From positions 160,001-224,000 of the IMG/VR virus record IMGVR_UViG_2030936005_000025: a stretch of DNA of 64,000 nt; one strand, written 5' to 3'. A program made the translations under genes and the position numbers. Position 1 is the stretch's first letter. Each line of letters starts with the position of its first letter. Below the pieces are notes generated by a model. It was not told the DNA's origin. It saw only the letters and a list, made by a program, of their open reading frames with translations, and ran no database searches. This stretch comes from a virus (lineage: Duplodnaviria > Caudoviricetes). Below, in pieces: positions 8,774-52,386 of the stretch.

Positions 8774-8826
8774 ATGCGCCTCTCTCTATATTAAATGAGT
8801 TAAAACTGTTTAGGTTTATCACTTAA

Positions 8827-8843
8827 GTAATATAGGTCTGAAA
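8827..8843 (-). promoter_or_regulatory. early promoter (TATATTAC type)
   Basis: Minus strand TTTCAGACCTATATTAC contains the phiKZ early-promoter core TATATTAC. Confidence 0.7.
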
Positions 8844-8864: not shown

Positions 8865-9587
8865 TCAGTCTTTTATTTGATCCCAAGTCTCAGAGCATAA
8901 GGTGATTGACTCTGGTAATTTCTTTTCGTCAAAGAGTTGCTTAATGATCGGGAAAGCAATCTCTGAGTCAGTACCGTATACCAGGGAAACGTGGAGCAAG
9001 AGGTCGTCGTAAGAATGTTTAAATCCTTCTTTGACCAGTTCTTTGTGTCGCTCAAGCACACCGCTGGATTCCAAGATCAGCGCACAAGAACGCCACTTAG
9101 AACCCGGCTTACCTAACATTTGCACACCGACTATCTGGCCTTTGTAGACCTTGTTAGATAATGATGGGACAATGTCTGGATTTCTTTCATCGTACATGAT
9201 CGTTGCATGAAGCTTGTTAACCGGGATTAAGTCAAGCTCCTCACAAACAGGCACGATTTCTTTATACAGTTTTGTACCGCTGGCTAAATCGACGTGTAAC
9301 TCAGCATAACCGTGATTCGACATAAGCTTTGGAACCTTTTTAATTTTTCCCGCACTCACAGCATAGAGGGCGGAGTCCAAACAATCTACAATATGACTTC
9401 CTATCAAATCTGTCTTATTCTTAAAGCGGTCTTTAAGAATTAAAAGAAGATGTTCCTCAGTCAAACCATTGGTAGAGAATTCGAACCTTGCCACACGGTT
9501 ATCGTCTTTATCGTAGACCTTGTATTGGTCCGGATGAGCAGACACCGTTCTGATACGACTATTTTCGTCCTGATGAATCGTCGCCAT
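8865..9587 (-). CDS. acb1: Acb1-like 2H phosphodiesterase with an N-terminal Tad1-like domain
   Basis: Two 2H motifs, LHATIMY and LHVSLVY, plus GFKHSYDD, resembling T4 Acb1 (IHSTICY...GATHDFDD...PHITLSY). The extra ~85-aa N-terminus carries NGLTEEHLLLILKDRF. Confidence 0.75.
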   Translation of the reverse strand: MATIHQDENSRIRTVSAHPDQYKVYDKDDNRVARFEFSTNGLTEEHLLLILKDRFKNKTDLIGSHIVDCLDSALYAVSAGKIKKVPKLMSNHGYAELHVDLASGTKLYKEIVPVCEELDLIPVNKLHATIMYDERNPDIVPSLSNKVYKGQIVGVQMLGKPGSKWRSCALILESSGVLERHKELVKEGFKHSYDDLLLHVSLVYGTDSEIAFPIIKQLFDEKKLPESITLCSETWDQIKD

Positions 9588-10473: not shown

Positions 10474-12066
10474 TTAATCCTCAGCGATTGGTTCGCTCAA
10501 CAATAACGAGTTAATGTTTAACAGGTTAGTTTTGGTGTGCGTACCGAAACGACTTACTTTAAAAGGTTTGTTCGGGTCTAACATCTGATGGTGACCCCAG
10601 CTACTATATGCTTCAACCTTGGACATCATATCCGGGATGAAGATCACATACATTGCATCGCCATCAAAGTCCGCACCATATTCCTTAACAGTGGTGATTG
10701 GAATACGGATGGATTTGTCATCAAGGTCTCGAGAGAACTCGACGAAGAATGCACGCGCTGATAAATATTGAATCGATGGATTTCGGCCAGCCGTTGCCAT
10801 TGCAAACTTGTTGGTTTCAATCCAGGTATAGAACTCTTCAATCAGCGGATGGCGATAGTTATTCGCTGTCTTGATGATGTCCTTCACCTTCAGAGGTGTA
10901 TACCCTTTACGATACAACCAGTTGGTCAGATGTTTATCTAGACAGGTCAAACCATACAGCCACGGTAACACAATTGTGTCAGAACGACATACGCCAGATT
11001 CACCGGTAATAATAGAACGCCCGGTCATCGGTAATTTACCCGCACCTGCATGATATCGAATCATGCCCTTCTTACCAAACAGAATGTTCTTCTGTACTTC
11101 CATGAGCGCGTCAACCAAAGGCTTCATGTTTTTACCCATGAGGTCTTCGTTTTCTGCTGCACGCACATCATCAACACCATACGTATCGGCCAGTGTGAAA
11201 TAGATCTTATCCAGATCTGTTTGTTCCTTATTCACATAGCGGTCACGTTGGTCCGATTCAACAACAGTGGTGATTTTGTTCGGCAGTGGTAAATAGTTGA
11301 AGACAGCCTTTGTCTTAAACTCCTGCCAGAACAGCGCAAAGTCAGTACGATCTTTTTCGGTGAGGTCAAGTACCTTACTGATATCTTGCTCAATTGCTGA
11401 CATCACGATCAAATCCAGATTATCAATAAAGCTGTTATAGCCAAAGTTGATATTCAGGGTTGCTCGGAAACTTTCGATCTTAGCCGCAATCTTGAATGCA
11501 TTGTTGGTTGGATCACGGAAACGTTTCTCATCGCGAATGTTCGGGTTGATCCAATATTCAACCAGGTTAACTTTCGGAGATTTGGTATTCAGCTTACTGA
11601 AGAAGATCGACCACATCGCTGGATTAATAAACCCAGAGACATACGCCGGTGTTCTCAGCCAGACTTTTGTTTCAATACGCTGAGCCAGTGGTTTAACAAC
11701 TTCACTACCACAGTTGTCACACGTAAAGCCAGAGCCGATATAAATGTTACTGCGATACTTACGACAGTTACAGCTTGCAACCGTATCGAAGTTATTGCCT
11801 TCATACTCAGTACGAAGTAACTCGATGATTGCTGCACGGTGTTCTTCGATATTGAAGTCAAAGTCATTCAGATATATCGGGGCCGTTATCGATAGATCAT
11901 GTTTAACATTGAAGTCTTCAAAATCAGGATACAGTGGGGTATAGAACTCAGGATCATCTTCACGTGGTGTGATACCACTTGCTTTAATAATCCCCTTAAA
12001 CAGTTCGCTTGGAATCATGTTCTGATCCGCGTACTTATTTAAGATGTCCGCCATCGTGTTTGACAT
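10474..12066 (-). CDS. non-virion RNA polymerase beta-prime subunit, N-terminal part (phiKZ gp55/56.1-like)
   Basis: Zn ribbon CNC...CDNC, RNPS motif and catalytic ADFDGD. Start revised to MSNTM at 12066 because the upstream extension spans a terminator. Confidence 0.93.
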   Translation of the reverse strand: MSNTMADILNKYADQNMIPSELFKGIIKASGITPREDDPEFYTPLYPDFEDFNVKHDLSITAPIYLNDFDFNIEEHRAAIIELLRTEYEGNNFDTVASCNCRKYRSNIYIGSGFTCDNCGSEVVKPLAQRIETKVWLRTPAYVSGFINPAMWSIFFSKLNTKSPKVNLVEYWINPNIRDEKRFRDPTNNAFKIAAKIESFRATLNINFGYNSFIDNLDLIVMSAIEQDISKVLDLTEKDRTDFALFWQEFKTKAVFNYLPLPNKITTVVESDQRDRYVNKEQTDLDKIYFTLADTYGVDDVRAAENEDLMGKNMKPLVDALMEVQKNILFGKKGMIRYHAGAGKLPMTGRSIITGESGVCRSDTIVLPWLYGLTCLDKHLTNWLYRKGYTPLKVKDIIKTANNYRHPLIEEFYTWIETNKFAMATAGRNPSIQYLSARAFFVEFSRDLDDKSIRIPITTVKEYGADFDGDAMYVIFIPDMMSKVEAYSSWGHHQMLDPNKPFKVSRFGTHTKTNLLNINSLLLSEPIAED

Positions 12067-12090: not shown

Positions 12091-12123
12091 CAAGAATAGC
12101 GGGAACGAGCCCGCTATTCTTGT
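12091..12123 (-). terminator. terminator after chimallin
   Basis: caagaatagcggg-aacgag-cccgctattcttg followed by a T run on the minus strand. Confidence 0.8.
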
Positions 12124-12159
12124 CATTTATCGTTTAACTACCTGGACCGTTAGTACTAA

Positions 12160-14088
12160 TTAGTACTGAGAGTACATGCCGTTAAAGCCACCGAAACCAG
12201 CAGCCTGTACAGACTGAGTGATCTGAGCAGTAATTGCATGGTTCAGGTAATCGTTACCGGTGTTCATGCTCCACATGGTCGCGGTGGTGGTACCAGACAG
12301 GGACAGAGTACCTGCAGTTGCCATTGCCTGCGCGAAGGTTGCGAAGAATGAGTTTTCCCACAGGAAGCGACGGTTCCAGCCATCCAGAATCACGTTTGCA
12401 CCGAACAGCTGGTTCAGACGGTTGTAGATGCTGTACTGACGGATCTTAACGTTGTCGCCACCCATAGAACCGTTGATCAGAGCTTGATACTCATTGATCG
12501 CAGATTCGTTCTGGCCGTAGTATGCATCCTGACGCAGGAACATACCATCAACTTCAGCCAGGTCAAACCACTTACCATCTTTACCTTGAGCGATACCGCT
12601 TGGCAGGATGATGTTGGTTTGTTTCAGGATGTCGTCACCGAAGGTCCACTCAGTGCGTGGGTTACGGTTCTGACCTTTGTTACCGTTCGCCTGCGCCAGC
12701 TCGCTGAACTTGCCGTTAGACAGCGCGTCGAGCATAGTGATCAGTGCACGGTGATAGGTAGAGCCAGCCGGTTTACCAACCAGAGACCACCAGAAGTCAG
12801 AGTTCGCAACGTCGCGAGTGAAGGTTGCCAGATCCAGAACGTAGACAGCCTGCGGAGCGATGTAAGTACCCAGCCAGTTGTTGACGATCTGTGCATTGGT
12901 GATGTTTTTCTCAGTGATGTACTGAGCGGTAGTGAATTGACCACCGACAGCCTGAACGATCTGAGACAGGTAGTGGTTGAAGTTACCGATGTTACCACGG
13001 TGACCCACTTCCTTACCACGGAATGCTTCTGACAGGTAACTGATGTGGTTCGCACCGATAGACGCGTACAGACCCAGCAGAGCAGTCAGCATAGAGCTGT
13101 TGTTGTTCAGGGTTTCACCAGGAACGGTCAGACCGGTAGAAACAACTGGTACCAGAGGACCAACGTTCATGCCAGGCTGACGAGCACGCGCCTGCTGGAA
13201 CTGGCTCTGAGACATCGCTTCCAGAGAAACGGTCATGTGAGCAGTTGCCACTGAACGGCTCTGAGAGCTGTTTGCAGACTGAGTACCGCCTTTGTTGGTG
13301 GTAGAGATTTTCGCCGCCAGGTTATACGGAGTTGGTACGCCATCGATGATCAGTTTGTTAACTGCTTCGATACGTGCAACCGCGGTGTCATCTTTACCGA
13401 ACAGTTTGCCATCTTTGAACGGGTTCGGGAATTCCACGCCGGCAACAGTCGCTTCCAGAGCCGCGATGTTGTACAGAGAGGTAGACCACTCTTTCAGGAT
13501 GCTGTTGCTGACATCGATAACCATGTTGTCCGCAGAGATCTGGTTTTTGATGTACGGTTCCAGGTTGCGAACGATCGGCGCCAGGATGATAACTTTGCTG
13601 GCGTTTTTGCCGTCAACGTAGGTGTACTGAGTTTTGATTTTCTCCAGCAGCTGTGGATCCATGAAGCCGGCAGCCGGTTTGGCGATTGCGCGAGCAGCTG
13701 GTTCGTTAGCCAGGTGGATAGATTCGGTCACTTCAGTAATACCGACTTTGTAGAACAGCACTGGCTGTACATAGACCGCGGTGCCGATGACAGTGTGCAG
13801 AGTCAGACCCGGCAGGTTTGGAGAAATGTCAGAAGTGATGGTGCGCACTTCTTTCGGCAGAGTCAGTTTCTGGATATCGCTGGCGGTGTTTTTGTTCAGC
13901 GTTTTGATGGTCTCTTCCAGAGACTTCATCACTTCGTTGACTTCCGCGATGTTGTTGGTAGAAGAGATCAGGTTCTGCTGACCCAGCAGAGCGAGTAACG
14001 GGTTGTTTGACATGTTGGTATTTTTACCTGCGTTGTTTGAAGAGTTGTTGCCAGAGTTGTCAGAAGAGTTGCGCTGATCAAGAGACAT
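12160..14088 (-). CDS. chmA: chimallin (phage nucleus shell protein)
   Basis: 642 aa immediately upstream of the nvRNAP beta-prime gene and near DNA polymerase, as in phiKZ gp50-54-55. GC-richer codon usage typical of a highly expressed gene; N/S-rich N-tail. Confidence 0.85.
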   Translation of the reverse strand: MSLDQRNSSDNSGNNSSNNAGKNTNMSNNPLLALLGQQNLISSTNNIAEVNEVMKSLEETIKTLNKNTASDIQKLTLPKEVRTITSDISPNLPGLTLHTVIGTAVYVQPVLFYKVGITEVTESIHLANEPAARAIAKPAAGFMDPQLLEKIKTQYTYVDGKNASKVIILAPIVRNLEPYIKNQISADNMVIDVSNSILKEWSTSLYNIAALEATVAGVEFPNPFKDGKLFGKDDTAVARIEAVNKLIIDGVPTPYNLAAKISTTNKGGTQSANSSQSRSVATAHMTVSLEAMSQSQFQQARARQPGMNVGPLVPVVSTGLTVPGETLNNNSSMLTALLGLYASIGANHISYLSEAFRGKEVGHRGNIGNFNHYLSQIVQAVGGQFTTAQYITEKNITNAQIVNNWLGTYIAPQAVYVLDLATFTRDVANSDFWWSLVGKPAGSTYHRALITMLDALSNGKFSELAQANGNKGQNRNPRTEWTFGDDILKQTNIILPSGIAQGKDGKWFDLAEVDGMFLRQDAYYGQNESAINEYQALINGSMGGDNVKIRQYSIYNRLNQLFGANVILDGWNRRFLWENSFFATFAQAMATAGTLSLSGTTTATMWSMNTGNDYLNHAITAQITQSVQAAGFGGFNGMYSQY

Positions 14089-14185
14089 GTATTCGATTCC
14101 TTTTAAACTTCGTGATATATAGATTAACGTTAATTTACATGGTGGGAGATAAGATGATTAAACATCTTGTCTACTATGCACTATA

Positions 14186-14202
14186 ATAATATAGACTTCA
14201 AA
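14186..14202 (-). promoter_or_regulatory. early-type promoter of chmA
   Basis: Minus strand TTTGAAGTCTATATTAT. Confidence 0.6.
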
Positions 14203-42681: not shown

Positions 42682-43290
42682 ATGAAACTTAAGTTGATTA
42701 CTGTTGATAAACGTACCTACGCAATTAAGACTCGATATATCGAGCTGAATAGTGATGCCAGTGTGCATTACCGCTCCCCTATCACTGGAAAATTCCCAAC
42801 AGGGGATGACGATACAATTACTGATGTGCTCAGGTCAGCTCCACCTACTGCCGTTGCTGTTGTGTATTCTTGTAACAGAGAACCAATCTATATTGAAAAG
42901 CATGACGGTGCGTATGTTATCTCTGAAGCTAAGACCATTGAGATTGTCAATCAGCCAGTGGACTTCGATGATGTTGATTTCTGGGTTAACACCAAAGGCG
43001 AGGAAGAGTGGAAAAAGGTTGGACTAGGATATTACATTGAGTATTCTAGAGTACACCTGAATGACAGTTACCAGGTCGCTCAAAAGGATTTCAATTTAAA
43101 TGAAAAAATGCAAGGGATAGTCCACCTGCCAAACGGTCAACTTGGTAAAGCAGTAAGATGGTATCTCAATGGATCGAGGACTTGGCTTAGAGTCACTGAG
43201 GGGATGAGTGAGGATATTCTTTCTAAACTGACCGTGATCACTATCCTTGATGGAAAAAATCCTAATGACCCAGGGTATAAACTTCCATAA
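42682..43290 (+). CDS. hypothetical protein
   Basis: 202-aa ORF. Confidence 0.75.
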   Translation: MKLKLITVDKRTYAIKTRYIELNSDASVHYRSPITGKFPTGDDDTITDVLRSAPPTAVAVVYSCNREPIYIEKHDGAYVISEAKTIEIVNQPVDFDDVDFWVNTKGEEEWKKVGLGYYIEYSRVHLNDSYQVAQKDFNLNEKMQGIVHLPNGQLGKAVRWYLNGSRTWLRVTEGMSEDILSKLTVITILDGKNPNDPGYKLP

Positions 43291-43299
43291 GTATATTAT
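43283..43299 (+). promoter_or_regulatory. putative promoter of the large ncRNA
   Basis: TCCATAAGTATATTAT has the same spacing as TTCAGACCTATATTAC. Confidence 0.45.
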
Positions 43300-43309
43300 G
43301 TAATTCAAT

Positions 43310-44157
43310 CGAGTGTAACTGATCGCTGTTCTGCGGAATAGTATGGTTTCATCACCCCGTTATATTCGACTGTAAGACCCTCGTTATCCAGGTGTGGGTA
43401 CATAACGAGGGCAGTGTCCGGTGGGTTGCACTACCGGACTAAATCCAAGAGTGAACGGCGGCTTAAGCCCGCTACTGTAAGTAGCTCTTGGTTGGGTGAT
43501 ATTATGTACTTTCACTGCATAATGTCCTCTGGCGGTGGTTGGACTTTTGGCGTTCTTCGCCATTGTCTGACAGATCACCGCACCCCTTTGTACCAGTGGC
43601 TGATATCCAAGTAGAGCTTTAATTATACCTGACGGATAGCGCTCACAGTGTTTCAACCATTGGTACATCCTCTTGAGGATCTTGAACGAAAACCGTAGGG
43701 TAACCGCCGAGCACATTGCGTTGCATTCAAGGCGGCTTAAGCAGGGGACTAGGTAGTCTTCCTGGGTGATATCAAGATCCTCAAACCTACTACTCTCCGT
43801 GATATGGAGTAGACACCCCGTGGTGGGGGCATCGTAACCATCTGATGAGTCCGCGATGAGAAATAAAGAGACGAAACGGGTTCTGTCGTTCGGAGACTCC
43901 AACTCCTGACAGATCCGTCATGAATCGCTCTGCCTTAACTGTGAGGAGCAGCCTCAATCTACGATTCTAGAGGAACAGCAGCGTTACTGAAAGATCCACG
44001 GCAAATGGATCGAAGCAGATAACAAACAGTCCGCTCCCTTTGCCAGGGGAGAAGTTGTTAAAACCAAGAGGTGTAGACAGCCTTTAGATCACCGTGGTAG
44101 TAAAATGGGGTTGCTCCCAGAGTAGCTATCAGAAAGTGGTCTTTAGAGTGGCTATAC
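43310..44157 (+). ncRNA. large (~850 nt) structured RNA containing a hammerhead ribozyme
   Basis: No credible ORF; many nested helices (43378-87/43402-11, 43590-99/43657-66, 43674-85/43772-83, 43325-31/43973-79); G-U pairs favour the plus strand. Confidence 0.72.
43827..43935 (+). ncRNA. type I hammerhead ribozyme
   Basis: CTGATGA 43842-48, stem II GTC/GAC, GAAA 43873-76, long stem III, GTC triplet 43917-19, stem I CAT/ATG extended by GGCA/TGCC. Confidence 0.8.
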
Positions 44158-44180
44158 AAAAAAAAATAACAGATCGAGAT

Positions 44181-44208
44181 CCTCTACTCTCCTAACGGAG
44201 AGTAGAGG
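44181..44208. terminator. bidirectional terminator
   Basis: cctctactctcc-taac-ggagagtagagg between convergent units. Confidence 0.8.
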
Positions 44209-44214
44209 TAATCT

Positions 44215-44640
44215 TTATGCTGTCAAATAAAGTTCAGCCCAGATTTTAAATAAACGTTTCATGTCATTTGCGATCAATCCTAATGCCCGTGTATTTTTCA
44301 AGTTACCGGCATACAACCAAAGTTCACACTCAGGTTCACCTACGATCACAATGTCATTGAAATACATGACCAGAGATTTGGATGAGGTAGCAATGAGATC
44401 TTTGCGATTAACTGCAAAGCAGAATTCATTGGATTCAAGAATCACATTGTAGAAATAAGTGAACAGAGCTGCATCAAAACTGTCTGGTTCTAATTCATAA
44501 GTCTCAGCTAACTTAATGCTCTCCTCTTCATTAATAGCTAATTTAGTCAGAGAGTCGTTACCGGTGATAGCAGACAGGTTGCGTTTGAAGATGGTTTCCA
44601 TGATAGCTTTCCTTAATAAGTTAAGAACATTATTGTTCAT
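44215..44640 (-). CDS. hypothetical protein
   Basis: ORF directly after the promoter at 44650. Confidence 0.7.
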   Translation of the reverse strand: MNNNVLNLLRKAIMETIFKRNLSAITGNDSLTKLAINEEESIKLAETYELEPDSFDAALFTYFYNVILESNEFCFAVNRKDLIATSSKSLVMYFNDIVIVGEPECELWLYAGNLKNTRALGLIANDMKRLFKIWAELYLTA

Positions 44641-44789: not shown

Positions 44790-45644
44790 ATGAGTTTAAG
44801 CAACCCGGTCGATTTTGCTATCGACTATGTGATAAACGGTCCGACCGATATCACGGAATATTTGTTAAAGCTTGCATTCTATAATCCGAACAACGGGTAC
44901 AATGCAATCTGGGGTCCGATGAATGACTCGTTTAGTATCGAGCAAGGTATCCGTGAGAAAGTTGTGAATAAGATGGTCGCTCCTCTACTTAAAGTAGCTG
45001 GCGGTCAAACTGAGATCATTGATCTTTCTGGTGCTCAAATTGAGAACCTGGCGGGTGGTGTTATCTGGGTCAGTGTTCCTGACTTCTTAACCGGTGGCCG
45101 TCGTATTCTGGAAGTCATAGAAGTGTATCCAGGAAACATTAACCGAGCGATTGCTAATGGTTATAACTTTGGTAACTACGCTAACTGTGGTGCCAGTATG
45201 ATGAACAACTCACTGAACCGTTTAATCAGTGGTCTGGATGACGGTAACGTCACCCGTTCATTCAACAGCTTCACCATGGTGGGTCCAAACTCCTTTATCA
45301 TTCGTGATGCAGGTTCAGCCATGTTTAATATGATCGCCAAAGTAATCTTGTCTTATGACGAGAACTTTAGCGGTGTTCCTGTTAAGATGTTTGATAAGTT
45401 TGCTGAACTCGTTGAGTTAGGCACTAAAGCCTACATCTATAAAACGTGTCGCCGTGGTATGCAGGAAGCTGTATCACGTTTCGGTGTAACAGTCGATGAC
45501 GTTCAGGATGATATTCAAGGTTATGCCGATGCTGCTCAGCAATTCAAAGACTTCTATAATGACCGAATGAAGAAGTATATGGCCTACGCTGATGCTAAAG
45601 GTAAGACTGACACTCTTAAAATGATTGTTCCAAGGAAACGATAA
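44790..45644 (+). CDS. conserved hypothetical protein, possibly virion-associated
   Basis: 284 aa with a GAGG RBS. Confidence 0.6.
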   Translation: MSLSNPVDFAIDYVINGPTDITEYLLKLAFYNPNNGYNAIWGPMNDSFSIEQGIREKVVNKMVAPLLKVAGGQTEIIDLSGAQIENLAGGVIWVSVPDFLTGGRRILEVIEVYPGNINRAIANGYNFGNYANCGASMMNNSLNRLISGLDDGNVTRSFNSFTMVGPNSFIIRDAGSAMFNMIAKVILSYDENFSGVPVKMFDKFAELVELGTKAYIYKTCRRGMQEAVSRFGVTVDDVQDDIQGYADAAQQFKDFYNDRMKKYMAYADAKGKTDTLKMIVPRKR

Positions 45645-47117: not shown

Positions 47118-47741
47118 ATGCCATACATTGTGTTTGAAGGACCAGACTTTGCCGGTAAATCAACGTTAACCAAAAAGGTTGCTGACCGTCTGGGCTATCG
47201 CTTGGTTGCTGAACCCTTTACTGAATCGGATAACGCCAAAGAAGTAAAGAAAGCAATCATCAACAATACTTTCAATAAAGAAACAGAAATCTTCTTATTG
47301 GCAGCTAATCGCCTGGAAGCTTTCCGTGATGTCATCACACCTGCTCGTCACGCTACAGGTGTTATCGGTGATCGTTCAGTTGTCAGTACGATGGTGTATC
47401 AGTCTGAAAGAAACGGAACCTGGCGTCAGTTACCCATTCTTGATTTCATGCAGAAAACCCTGCAACAAGAGTGGCACGATATCTACCCTGAACATCTGTT
47501 CTTCCTGGATATCGATCATGACACGTATCTGGAGCGCTTAGCCAATTCGGGTCGTGTGGCTGATGAGAAAGAAAAGGCATTGATGGATCCAGAAAACTGG
47601 ATGCGTCTTAAGGAAGATTATCTTTCTGCTCTTGAGTGGATCTCTTTCCGTAAACCGGAAATCAAGATTCATTTCATCACACCAGAGACCACGGTTGAAG
47701 AGATTGTTTCATTGATCGATCCAACGGTTGCTGTGATCTAA
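47118..47741 (+). CDS. tmk: thymidylate (dTMP) kinase
   Basis: P-loop FEGPDFAGKST, DR motif, STMVYQ. Confidence 0.9.
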   Translation: MPYIVFEGPDFAGKSTLTKKVADRLGYRLVAEPFTESDNAKEVKKAIINNTFNKETEIFLLAANRLEAFRDVITPARHATGVIGDRSVVSTMVYQSERNGTWRQLPILDFMQKTLQQEWHDIYPEHLFFLDIDHDTYLERLANSGRVADEKEKALMDPENWMRLKEDYLSALEWISFRKPEIKIHFITPETTVEEIVSLIDPTVAVI

Positions 47742-47762
47742 AAAAAAATAAATGATTAAGAC

Positions 47763-47790
47763 CCTCTACTCTCCGTTAGGAGAGTAGAGG
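47763..47790. terminator. bidirectional terminator
   Basis: cctctactctcc-gtta-ggagagtagagg. Confidence 0.8.
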
Positions 47791-47796
47791 CGATCT

Positions 47797-48141
47797 TTAT
47801 TTGCTCATGCGTGTTGCAATCATGCCGTTTTCAAACAGCGTCCCAACAAACAGCTCACCTTTTTCAAAAAAGTTATAAAGGTTATCTTTGGTGATGGGAA
47901 GTTTGGTATTAACCAAGTTAATAGTTGTGTAGAACCCACAACTGTTTTCAAAGTAGTTAAAGCGGACTTTGATCAACTGATCAAAAGCCATACCTGAGAT
48001 CCAAGCAGAACCGTTCAAATAACCCACGGTAAGGATCAGGTCTTTATCGGTAATTTTACGGCTTGCGATATAGTTATCAGTATCCAGCCGTGATTCAGGT
48101 TTGACAATAAATTCAAGAAACTTTTTCAGTTCAGCATTCAT
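47797..48141 (-). CDS. hypothetical protein
   Basis: 114-aa ORF. Confidence 0.7.
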   Translation of the reverse strand: MNAELKKFLEFIVKPESRLDTDNYIASRKITDKDLILTVGYLNGSAWISGMAFDQLIKVRFNYFENSCGFYTTINLVNTKLPITKDNLYNFFEKGELFVGTLFENGMIATRMSK

Positions 48142-52329: not shown

Positions 52330-52369
52330 AACTAAGGTCCTATTAAATTAAGCGTTGGTTAACACTTAG

Positions 52370-52386
52370 ATAATATAGACTTGAAT
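52370..52386 (-). promoter_or_regulatory. early-type promoter
   Basis: Minus strand ATTCAAGTCTATATTAT. Confidence 0.6.

Follow-up and report, generated by a model that had tools for sequence, protein, structure and literature searches.

A large non-coding RNA with an embedded type I hammerhead ribozyme in OBP-like jumbo phages

Closest described RNAs and the present locus

GOLLD (RF01998) and ROOL (RF03087), ornate RNAs known from phages and prophages, are among the closest described counterparts of the RNA reported here; like it, they span hundreds of nucleotides, combine many covarying helices with loop-loop tertiary contacts, and are located in phages beside tRNA genes. To our knowledge, neither holds a self-cleaving ribozyme or splits into two modules. 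Smaller RNAs are known from similar places: hepatitis delta virus (HDV)-like theta ribozymes lie behind the tRNAs of gut phages and the tRNA clusters of T4 and T5 hold stable RNAs of unassigned role, with small ribozymes or host RNases maturing non-coding RNAs (ncRNAs) of ~100-150 nt. In this work we analyzed a 64,000-nt stretch (positions 160,001 to 224,000) of the 264,203-bp IMG/VR record IMGVR_UViG_2030936005_000025, which represents a giant, phiKZ-like phage; the whole stretch is called the window, and its coordinates and plus strand are used unless noted otherwise. A first-pass annotation, made from the sequence letters, had placed at 43310-44157 a structured RNA of ~850 nt with a hammerhead ribozyme. 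We consider it probable that the gap between genes at this locus is a gene for an ncRNA precursor that is cut by its own hammerhead into two RNAs, and that these products act in trans.

The similarity to GOLLD and ROOL is one of general design, whereas sequence and structure do not match. In the window, the covariance models of both families gave no match, whether at the gathering threshold or at E<=10, and the homologous loci gave none at E<=1, in agreement with the first-pass annotation, which had recognized the RNA as neither of the two. The hosts also differ, those of the present RNA being Gammaproteobacteria. From the theta ribozymes it differs in ribozyme class and in that the hammerhead here would mature a 600-nt RNA rather than a tRNA. 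The Rfam comparison that had been suggested with the annotation was made with release 15. At gathering thresholds the window contains only tRNAs, none of them in the gap, and permissive settings add just a sub-threshold Hammerhead_3 match; the gap of seven homologous loci yielded nothing at E<=1. No covariance-model match was obtained for RNase P RNA, tmRNA or 6S RNA, and a module containing GAACCCG, loosely reminiscent of RNase P, does not occur in the window itself. The papers and preprints searched contain no earlier description of this RNA. Altogether, the large RNA with its built-in hammerhead matches no catalogued RNA family.

Homologues were collected by blastn, protein-anchored searches and a pattern scan. 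The same element was found in 13 distinct OBP-like jumbo phages, the window counted, which belong to at least four named genera. The named carriers are Erwinia phage AH04, Kosakonia phage Kc263, Pantoea phage Survivor, Serratia phage Yubaba/Sureiya, Klebsiella phage N1M2, Shewanella phage SXP01, Edwardsiella phage pEt-SU and Pseudomonas phage OBP; the remaining carriers are the window, three IMG/VR genomes and one metagenome contig. The position of the RNA is fixed, since in all homologues it lies on the same strand downstream of a tRNA/glutaredoxin cluster and is followed by a DUF7484 gene, a 490-aa gene and thymidylate kinase. Three models were used for the hammerhead block (R1), the core block (R2) and the 3' module (R3). 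R1 yields 82-119 bits in all 13 phages with only one copy in the window's genome, while R2 yields 92-130 bits in 12 phages and 37.9 bits in SXP01; the RNA is single copy per genome. With these models, and apart from a hammerhead in Klebsiella phage Miami, the RNA was not found in the Aeromonas sister clade, Miami or phiKZ, all of which share the flanking genes.

The hammerhead ribozyme

The ribozyme is located at 43830..43922 and has type I topology. Stem I pairs CAU (43839-41) with AUG (43920-22), the core CUGAUGA occupies 43842-48, stem II is formed by 43849-51/43870-72 and GAAA lies at 43873-76. An inner hairpin whose ACUCCAR loop is conserved closes stem III (43876-87/43908-18), which is followed by C17 at 43919, so that the predicted self-cleavage site falls between the GUC triplet and the next A, at 43919..43920 (C43919 and A43920), in a CCGUC motif invariant in 13 of 13 phages. 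The core elements CUGANGA and GAAA are also invariant in the 13 phages, with variation (U, A or C) only at N7, a position that is free in hammerheads. The same holds for GUC, for the basal G-C pair of stem II and for the four basal pairs of stem III (A-U, C-G, G-C and G-C). Pairing reaches 85-94% in stems I, II and III, and each of them shows compensatory changes. The named hammerhead structure as a whole comprises 23 pairs, 12 of them with double changes, and 89.3% of its cells are paired, as compared to 25-47% in controls with slid partners. In addition, CAUCG (43830-34), just 5' of stem I, forms a pseudoknot with CGAUG (43854-58) of loop II. Pairing in the pseudoknot amounts to 98.5%, and double changes affect three of the five pairs, the variants being CAUCG/CGAUG, CGUCG/CGACG, UGUCG/CGACA, GUUCG/CGAAC and CCCG/CGGG. 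Such pseudoknots between stem I and stem II occur in ~40% of natural hammerheads and are required for fast cleavage (PMC3088659).

In the window, the ribozyme stays far under all Rfam hammerhead thresholds, with Hammerhead_3 as the best clan match at 16.3 bits versus 48.5 (E = 4.2). We attribute this miss to the odd stem and loop lengths and to a model of the wrong topology (type III), not to a missing core. A type III reading, with stem III formed by CCCGU/ACGGG and a GUG triplet, was considered and rejected. Its CCCGU strand sits in a freely changing hairpin (CUCUC or CUACU in other phages) while ACGGG is invariant, so the proposed 5' strand of stem III is not conserved, whereas stem III and the GUC of the type I reading are conserved and covary. 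Judged by this comparison, the embedded ribozyme proposed in the first pass is real, and it is a genuine type I hammerhead.

The pseudoknot hammerheads described by Perreault et al. 2011 (Rfam clan CL00010; PMC3088659) resemble it in the full core CUGANGA ... GAAA, the three stems, the GUC triplet, the G10.1-C11.1 and A15.1-U16.1 pairs and the Watson-Crick pseudoknot between stem I and loop II, and many of them share the phage intergenic setting. Unlike the Rfam hammerheads, the present ribozyme has an open stem I of very few base pairs, an A-rich loop II of 20 nt and a stem III that is long and two-tiered and carries the ACUCCAR loop; unlike stand-alone intergenic hammerheads, it sits within a much larger conserved RNA. 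Rfam hammerhead models thus overlook a well-formed phage subtype.

A member of the same subtype was detected by R1 in Klebsiella phage Miami (36.9 bits, E about 1e-8; L057:1265-1365 on the minus strand, NC_070950.1 222388-222488), with a CGUCG/CGACG pseudoknot, a 4-bp stem I, a GUCU/AGAC stem II and a GUC site. It differs in being stand-alone, on the other strand, ~2 kb away and in a ~350-nt gap, and searches of the Miami genome with R2 (core block) and R3 (3' module) found nothing. The Miami hammerhead lies ~235 nt downstream of gp267, near phuZ, and the preceding stretch holds a tRNA-like T-arm, GGGGGTTCAATCCCC. Further hammerhead-like sequences were noted. Three hammerhead-model matches of 20-29 bits occur on a viral, G+C-rich contig of 17.5 kb (L018, IMGVR_UViG_3300045136_000538; 8878-8945, 11158-11253 and 12109-12217), all on the same strand, resembling a multi-hammerhead polycistronic layout unrelated to the present RNA. 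On two metagenome contigs (L026:81-193, plus strand; L039:688-800, minus strand), a remote hammerhead was seen that shares the A-rich loop II, UAUAUAAAUAA, and has a pseudoknot of CCGG/CCGG and what looks like a GUA site; the core-block model gave no match there.

Folded modules, their variation and coding potential

The gene-free stretch extends over 924 bp (43291-44214), beginning after the stop at 43290 of an upstream plus-strand open reading frame (ORF) of 202 aa. Its G+C content is 0.49-0.50 over 43300-44050, compared to 0.40-0.44 upstream and 0.34-0.40 downstream, so the ~920-bp, G+C-richer gap of the first-pass annotation holds. The minimum free energy (MFE) of the plus-strand gap RNA is -337.7 kcal/mol, with z = -6.65 against dinucleotide shuffles; the minus-strand fold of the same gap has z = -4.98. 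An intrinsic terminator at 44181-44208, recognized already in the first pass, consists of a 12-bp stem, a 4-nt loop and a T-rich tail, and an equivalent terminator ends the locus in every homologue. A second terminator hairpin, 81-89% identical to it, lies ~3.5 kb downstream at 47740-47802; this recurrence points to a terminator type shared within this phage. Between the RNA's terminator and the next plus-strand ORF, the DUF7484 (PHIKZ042-like) gene that starts at 44790, lies a minus-strand ORFan of 141 aa (44215-44640), which has no Pfam or PHROG match and is not present at the equivalent place in AH04.

The collection and comparison of homologues that had been proposed with the annotation yielded the 13 syntenic phages, among which compensatory changes are strong in four alignable blocks; 89-92% of cells are paired in three of them. 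The most conserved is the core block (43370..43494), with the motif series GUAAGACC ... UAAAUCC ... GUGAACGG ... UGGUKG, the helices 43378-86/43403-11, 43416-22/43433-39 and 43445-51/43485-91, and hairpins at 43457-73 and 43471-85. In alignment A3 of 13 phages, its 25 pairs are 90.9% paired by cells and 16 pairs have two-sided changes. None of 500 shuffles equaled it on covariation score and cells paired, and slid partners were 32-51% paired. The long closing stem block (43670..43787) contains the stem 43673-85/43772-84, an invariant junction GAACGAAA / GCGAUAUC and inner hairpins. Its stem, covered by alignment A4 (13 phages), has 13 pairs that are 92.3% paired, 10 of them with double changes; none of 500 shuffles reached its covariation score or cells paired, and one of 500 did so on double-change pairs. 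Two of the stems seen in the first pass thus covary across 13 phages, the 10-bp stem 43378-87/43402-11 and the 12-bp stem 43674-85/43772-83, the latter as a 13-bp helix.

Ahead of the ribozyme lie two hairpins (43790..43828). The second, 43816-19/43825-28 with a GUGGU loop, is present in 13 of 13 phages with differing stems (CCCC/GGGG, CCCU/AGGG, CUCUC/GAGAG, CUACU/AGUAG and UCUCC/GGAGA); the first, 43790-98/43806-12, is restricted to the window clade and Kc263. Past the cleavage site, the 3' module of ~240 nt (43920..44157; alignments A5 and A6, nine phages) comprises a hairpin at 43928-50 with a conserved GCCUUAACYGUGAG loop, the hairpins H3 (43993-44011) and H4 (44034-51), and a terminal domain at ~44073-44156. 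It has 44 predicted pairs, 20 with double changes, and a sub-block has 36 pairs, 15 with double changes; the separate 3' domain of the first-pass annotation is therefore a covarying unit. H3 and H4 are joined by a kissing loop of GGCAAA (44000-05) with UUUGCC (44039-44), which retains 6-7 Watson-Crick pairs in nine of nine phages with covarying flanking positions; besides the GGCAAA/UUUGCC of the window, the variants are UGGCAU/AUGCCA, AGGCAU/AUGCCU, GGGCAA/UUGCCC and UUGGCA/UGCCAA.

At the other end, the MFE fold contains a 5' stem-loop domain (43298..43369), in which P1 (43309-19/43359-69) encloses the hairpin 43326-31/43336-41. The hairpin is kept through compensatory changes (UUC/GAA, GUC/GAC, CCC/GGG) in five close relatives, and changes in P1 are one-sided only. 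The same nucleotides had been assigned to a long-range stem, 43325-31/43973-79, closing ~650 nt. This stem, a 7-bp match in the window, breaks down to 5/7 in AH04 and 3/7 in IMG_10002, and it was rejected because the local hairpin covaries instead. The variable middle region (43495..43669) contains the remaining 10-bp stem of the first pass, 43590-99/43657-66, which exists but is conserved in the window clade alone, so that its covariation is uninformative. Three further candidates were discarded: a pairing ACUGUUUGCU/AGCAAACAGU, judged by eye only, which has 9-10 bp in IMG_31419 and IMG_10002 and ~4 bp in the window; an internal module duplication, which amounts to a 12-nt exact repeat, GGCGGCTTAAGC, not co-conserved in relatives; and a palindromic CUUAAG loop as a dimerisation site, conserved in four phages only. 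The view of one structured RNA of ~850 nt is right as to a large folded RNA, but the molecule is better viewed as two modules split by the ribozyme.

The modules vary between phages. The window and IMG_45943 are without a middle module of ~150-200 nt, which shows high conservation among the other phages; in run X16, the middle region of a relative measures 207 nt against the window's 93 nt. The 3' module is absent genome-wide, by R3 search, from Survivor, pEt-SU and SXP01, in which the terminator stands ~15 nt past the cut, right after GUC and the short stem I strand. IMG_45943 has an extra ~60-nt insert inside the 3' module, while in a relative from run X15 (rhizosphere) 3128 nt of other sequence replace this module (contig placed on window 43926/44158). 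The spot just past the hammerhead therefore holds a terminator only in three phages, the 240-nt module in nine, and other sequence in the X15 relative. Such variability could be expected of a mobile-element remnant or cargo site, for instance an intron-like or homing-endonuclease-associated RNA, as could the insert in IMG_45943 and the HNH endonuclease gene found at the syntenic position in Aeromonas phage pAEv1810 (L054:2384-3436). We nevertheless regard this origin as very improbable: no host gene or exons are interrupted; the genes or tRNAs on either side are separate and complete; group I/II intron models gave no signal at E<=10 in the window or E<=1 in homologues; and the RNA occurs as a single copy per genome at a fixed position across genera.

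A protein-coding function of the region was also considered. On the minus strand, a frame of 177 codons is open, giving from its first start codon an ORF of 172 aa (43384-43902), and a coding sequence, N1M2_252, is annotated on the same strand at the equivalent place in N1M2. However, the frame is found only in these two phages and is disrupted in all other relatives, the nearest ones included, whose longest frames are 64-110 codons at positions that do not match. It has no Pfam or PHROG match, and substitutions track base-pairing rather than codons. A conserved translated ORF, which the first pass had named as the finding that would speak against an RNA, was not found on either strand when frames were compared across relatives and searched against Pfam and PHROG. 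The coding explanation is thus refuted by the comparative data, and its residual probability is negligible.

Transcription, products and possible role

A promoter-like motif had been noted at 43283. The match to an early promoter (43283..43306, with the ATATTAT core at 43293-99) overlaps the stop codon of the upstream 202-aa ORF and agrees at 17 of 24 positions with the early-promoter consensus TTTCARRYAKATATTATYWAAGTG published for the relatives N1M2 and OBP (PMC7058600). The window contains three strong consensus matches elsewhere, all on the minus strand (8820-8843, 14179-14202 and 52363-52386), with 2-3 mismatches per 24 positions and 0.01 expected. The motif is conserved in the five closest phages, and in IMG_10002 it stands directly after a terminator-like hairpin, which favours an own promoter in this clade. 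The motif of the first pass contains the core; promoter function is plausible, not proven. A second near-copy (12/13) of the promoter-core string ATATTATGTAATT is located inside the RNA at 43499-43511, where it forms one hairpin arm in the segment standing in place of other phages' middle module.

The upstream neighbour varies by phage between tRNA-Met, glutaredoxin, OBP_011 and the 202-aa ORF; in Yubaba, N1M2 and the metagenome contig, the RNA begins directly after the CCA of tRNA-Met. Where it abuts a tRNA or glutaredoxin gene, in the other clade, co-transcription and 5' processing are more likely. This arrangement also bears on a cis-acting role, in which the region would either serve the upstream glutaredoxin/tRNA transcript, as its 3' untranslated region (UTR) or as a processing signal, or precede the downstream virion genes as their leader, and the hammerhead would merely uncouple mRNA segments. 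In most relatives the RNA starts no more than ~12 nt from the end of the upstream gene or tRNA and its own promoter lacks room, and polycistronic RNAs in which hammerheads flank genes have been described (PMC3088659). We hold this role to be improbable, because the upstream neighbour changes among phages while the RNA stays constant, a strong terminator precedes the downstream genes (with a minus-strand ORF in between in the window), and a covarying multi-domain structure of 600-900 nt far exceeds what a processing signal needs.

Sequence of the RNA was contained in none of the runs on record as RNA. Four small runs of one public study (X17, X18, X23 and X24), whose library type is guessed to be RNA, gave contigs (not exact ends) from a phage ~96-97% identical to IMG_45943 (L009), on whose coordinates the predicted cut lies between 2052 and 2053. 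In X17, a contig of the 5' core (1420-2015) has a depth of 8.7 and one of the 3' piece (2069-2279) a depth of 20.6, with short contigs of neighbour genes at 2.5-3.9. The 5' core gave no contig in X18 and X23, where the 3' piece reached depths of 387 (2072-2245; neighbours 28.7, and 13 further downstream) and 210 (2072-2278; neighbours 9-27), respectively; X24 has neighbours at 26.7 (10.6 further downstream) and neither piece. The depth of the 3' module is thus ~10-fold over that of neighbouring genes in contigs from this single, probably RNA, study, and depth so uneven along one phage genome is not expected of genomic DNA. None of the contigs of X17, X18 and X23 spans L009 2016-2068, where the predicted cut lies, and depth differs across its two sides. 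The contigs fit two RNA species of unequal abundance parted at the ribozyme, which is supportive, not decisive.

Under the preferred explanation, that of a self-cut ncRNA precursor, transcription would proceed on the plus strand from the early-type promoter at ~43283-43306 or, in most relatives, by read-through from the upstream tRNA/glutaredoxin unit, and would end at the terminator at 44181-44208. The 5-bp pseudoknot of loop II with the strand 5' of stem I would stabilize the hammerhead, which would then cut between C43919 and A43920 without protein. One product would be a multi-helix core RNA of ~620 nt that keeps the ribozyme body and has a 2',3'-cyclic phosphate end; the other would be an RNA of ~290 nt with a 5'-hydroxyl, comprising the 240-nt kissing-loop module and the terminator hairpin. 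In Survivor, pEt-SU and SXP01, the same cut would just take off the terminator hairpin. Since these three phages keep the cut without the 3' module, and since the constant part consists of core, hammerhead and terminator, the conserved job of the ribozyme appears to be the formation of the core RNA's 3' end, with the second stable RNA as an add-on. Most likely, both products would act in trans during infection as stable folded RNAs, either as RNA-only or as ribonucleoprotein scaffolds.

The first-pass proposal of a new large phage RNA that self-processes is supported by synteny in 13 phages, the lack of a conserved ORF, covariation and the invariant hammerhead core. Conservation, non-coding nature, covarying structure and a complete hammerhead are established at the level of sequence comparison; in vivo cleavage, end chemistry, stability and trans action we infer from them. 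Several observations weigh against this explanation. Stem I is only 3-4 bp long, and in the window a C-A mismatch takes the place of the fourth stem II pair. The promoter motif agrees with the consensus only in part (17/24), and an X17 contig begins ~45 nt upstream of the motif. Among the informative runs, whose library type is guessed to be RNA, the 5' contig stops short of the cut by 37 nt, the 3' contigs begin 17-20 nt past it, and X24 shows the flanking genes yet no ncRNA contig.

A more specific function, within the same anatomy and not requiring a different one, would be that of an anti-defence or host-takeover decoy, in which the processed RNAs mimic or sequester host RNA or protein, such as tRNA-end-binding proteins or immune sensors, and their unusual ends matter. 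The RNA is encoded beside tRNAs, in an island that is accessory and rich in RNA genes, it is limited to one clade, and it is modular, with modules gained and lost. UGGUG-type motifs were seen repeatedly, both in a hairpin loop and where the core block ends, and are putatively complementary to the 3' end of a tRNA (CACCA, for instance). These motifs are, however, short and not shared by all phages, VFSW having a GAAA loop in their place, and no phage RtcB or RNA-repair enzyme could be tied to the ribozyme ends. RtcB was not found in the window's genome, and the search for an RNA ligase gave one sub-threshold ligase-like match in a 659-aa ORF, so the use of the ends by a phage enzyme of either kind was rejected. 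We consider the decoy function unlikely, if less so than a cis-acting role.

The first-pass annotation had called the phage nucleus-forming. Kinship agrees with this, as a PHIKZ042 homologue adjoins the RNA and the relative ZPAH34 is annotated with chimallin, but a phiKZ chimallin query against the window's genome, an insensitive search, gave no match; the phage is thus presumably nucleus-forming by kinship only.

Large structured RNAs of unassigned role are rare, and new classes, with ROOL, GOLLD and OLE as recent examples from cryo-electron microscopy, have tended to uncover new biology. The present RNA is testable in cultured pairs (AH04/Erwinia billingiae, Yubaba/Serratia marcescens, N1M2/Klebsiella aerogenes and OBP/Pseudomonas fluorescens), its built-in ribozyme activity can be assayed in one day, and natural deletion variants (core only, core with 3' module, with or without the middle module) reveal which modules are dispensable. 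It also raises the question why phiKZ-like phages, with transcription separated from the host cytoplasm, carry self-processing RNAs. As a tentative proposal, OBP-like, presumably nucleus-forming phages may possess a new class of large catalytic and structural RNA, which matures itself without host RNases into two ornate RNAs with unusual ends that serve as RNA-only assemblies or decoys in host takeover. If this is true, self-maturation would bypass host RNases that may not reach the phage transcription compartment.

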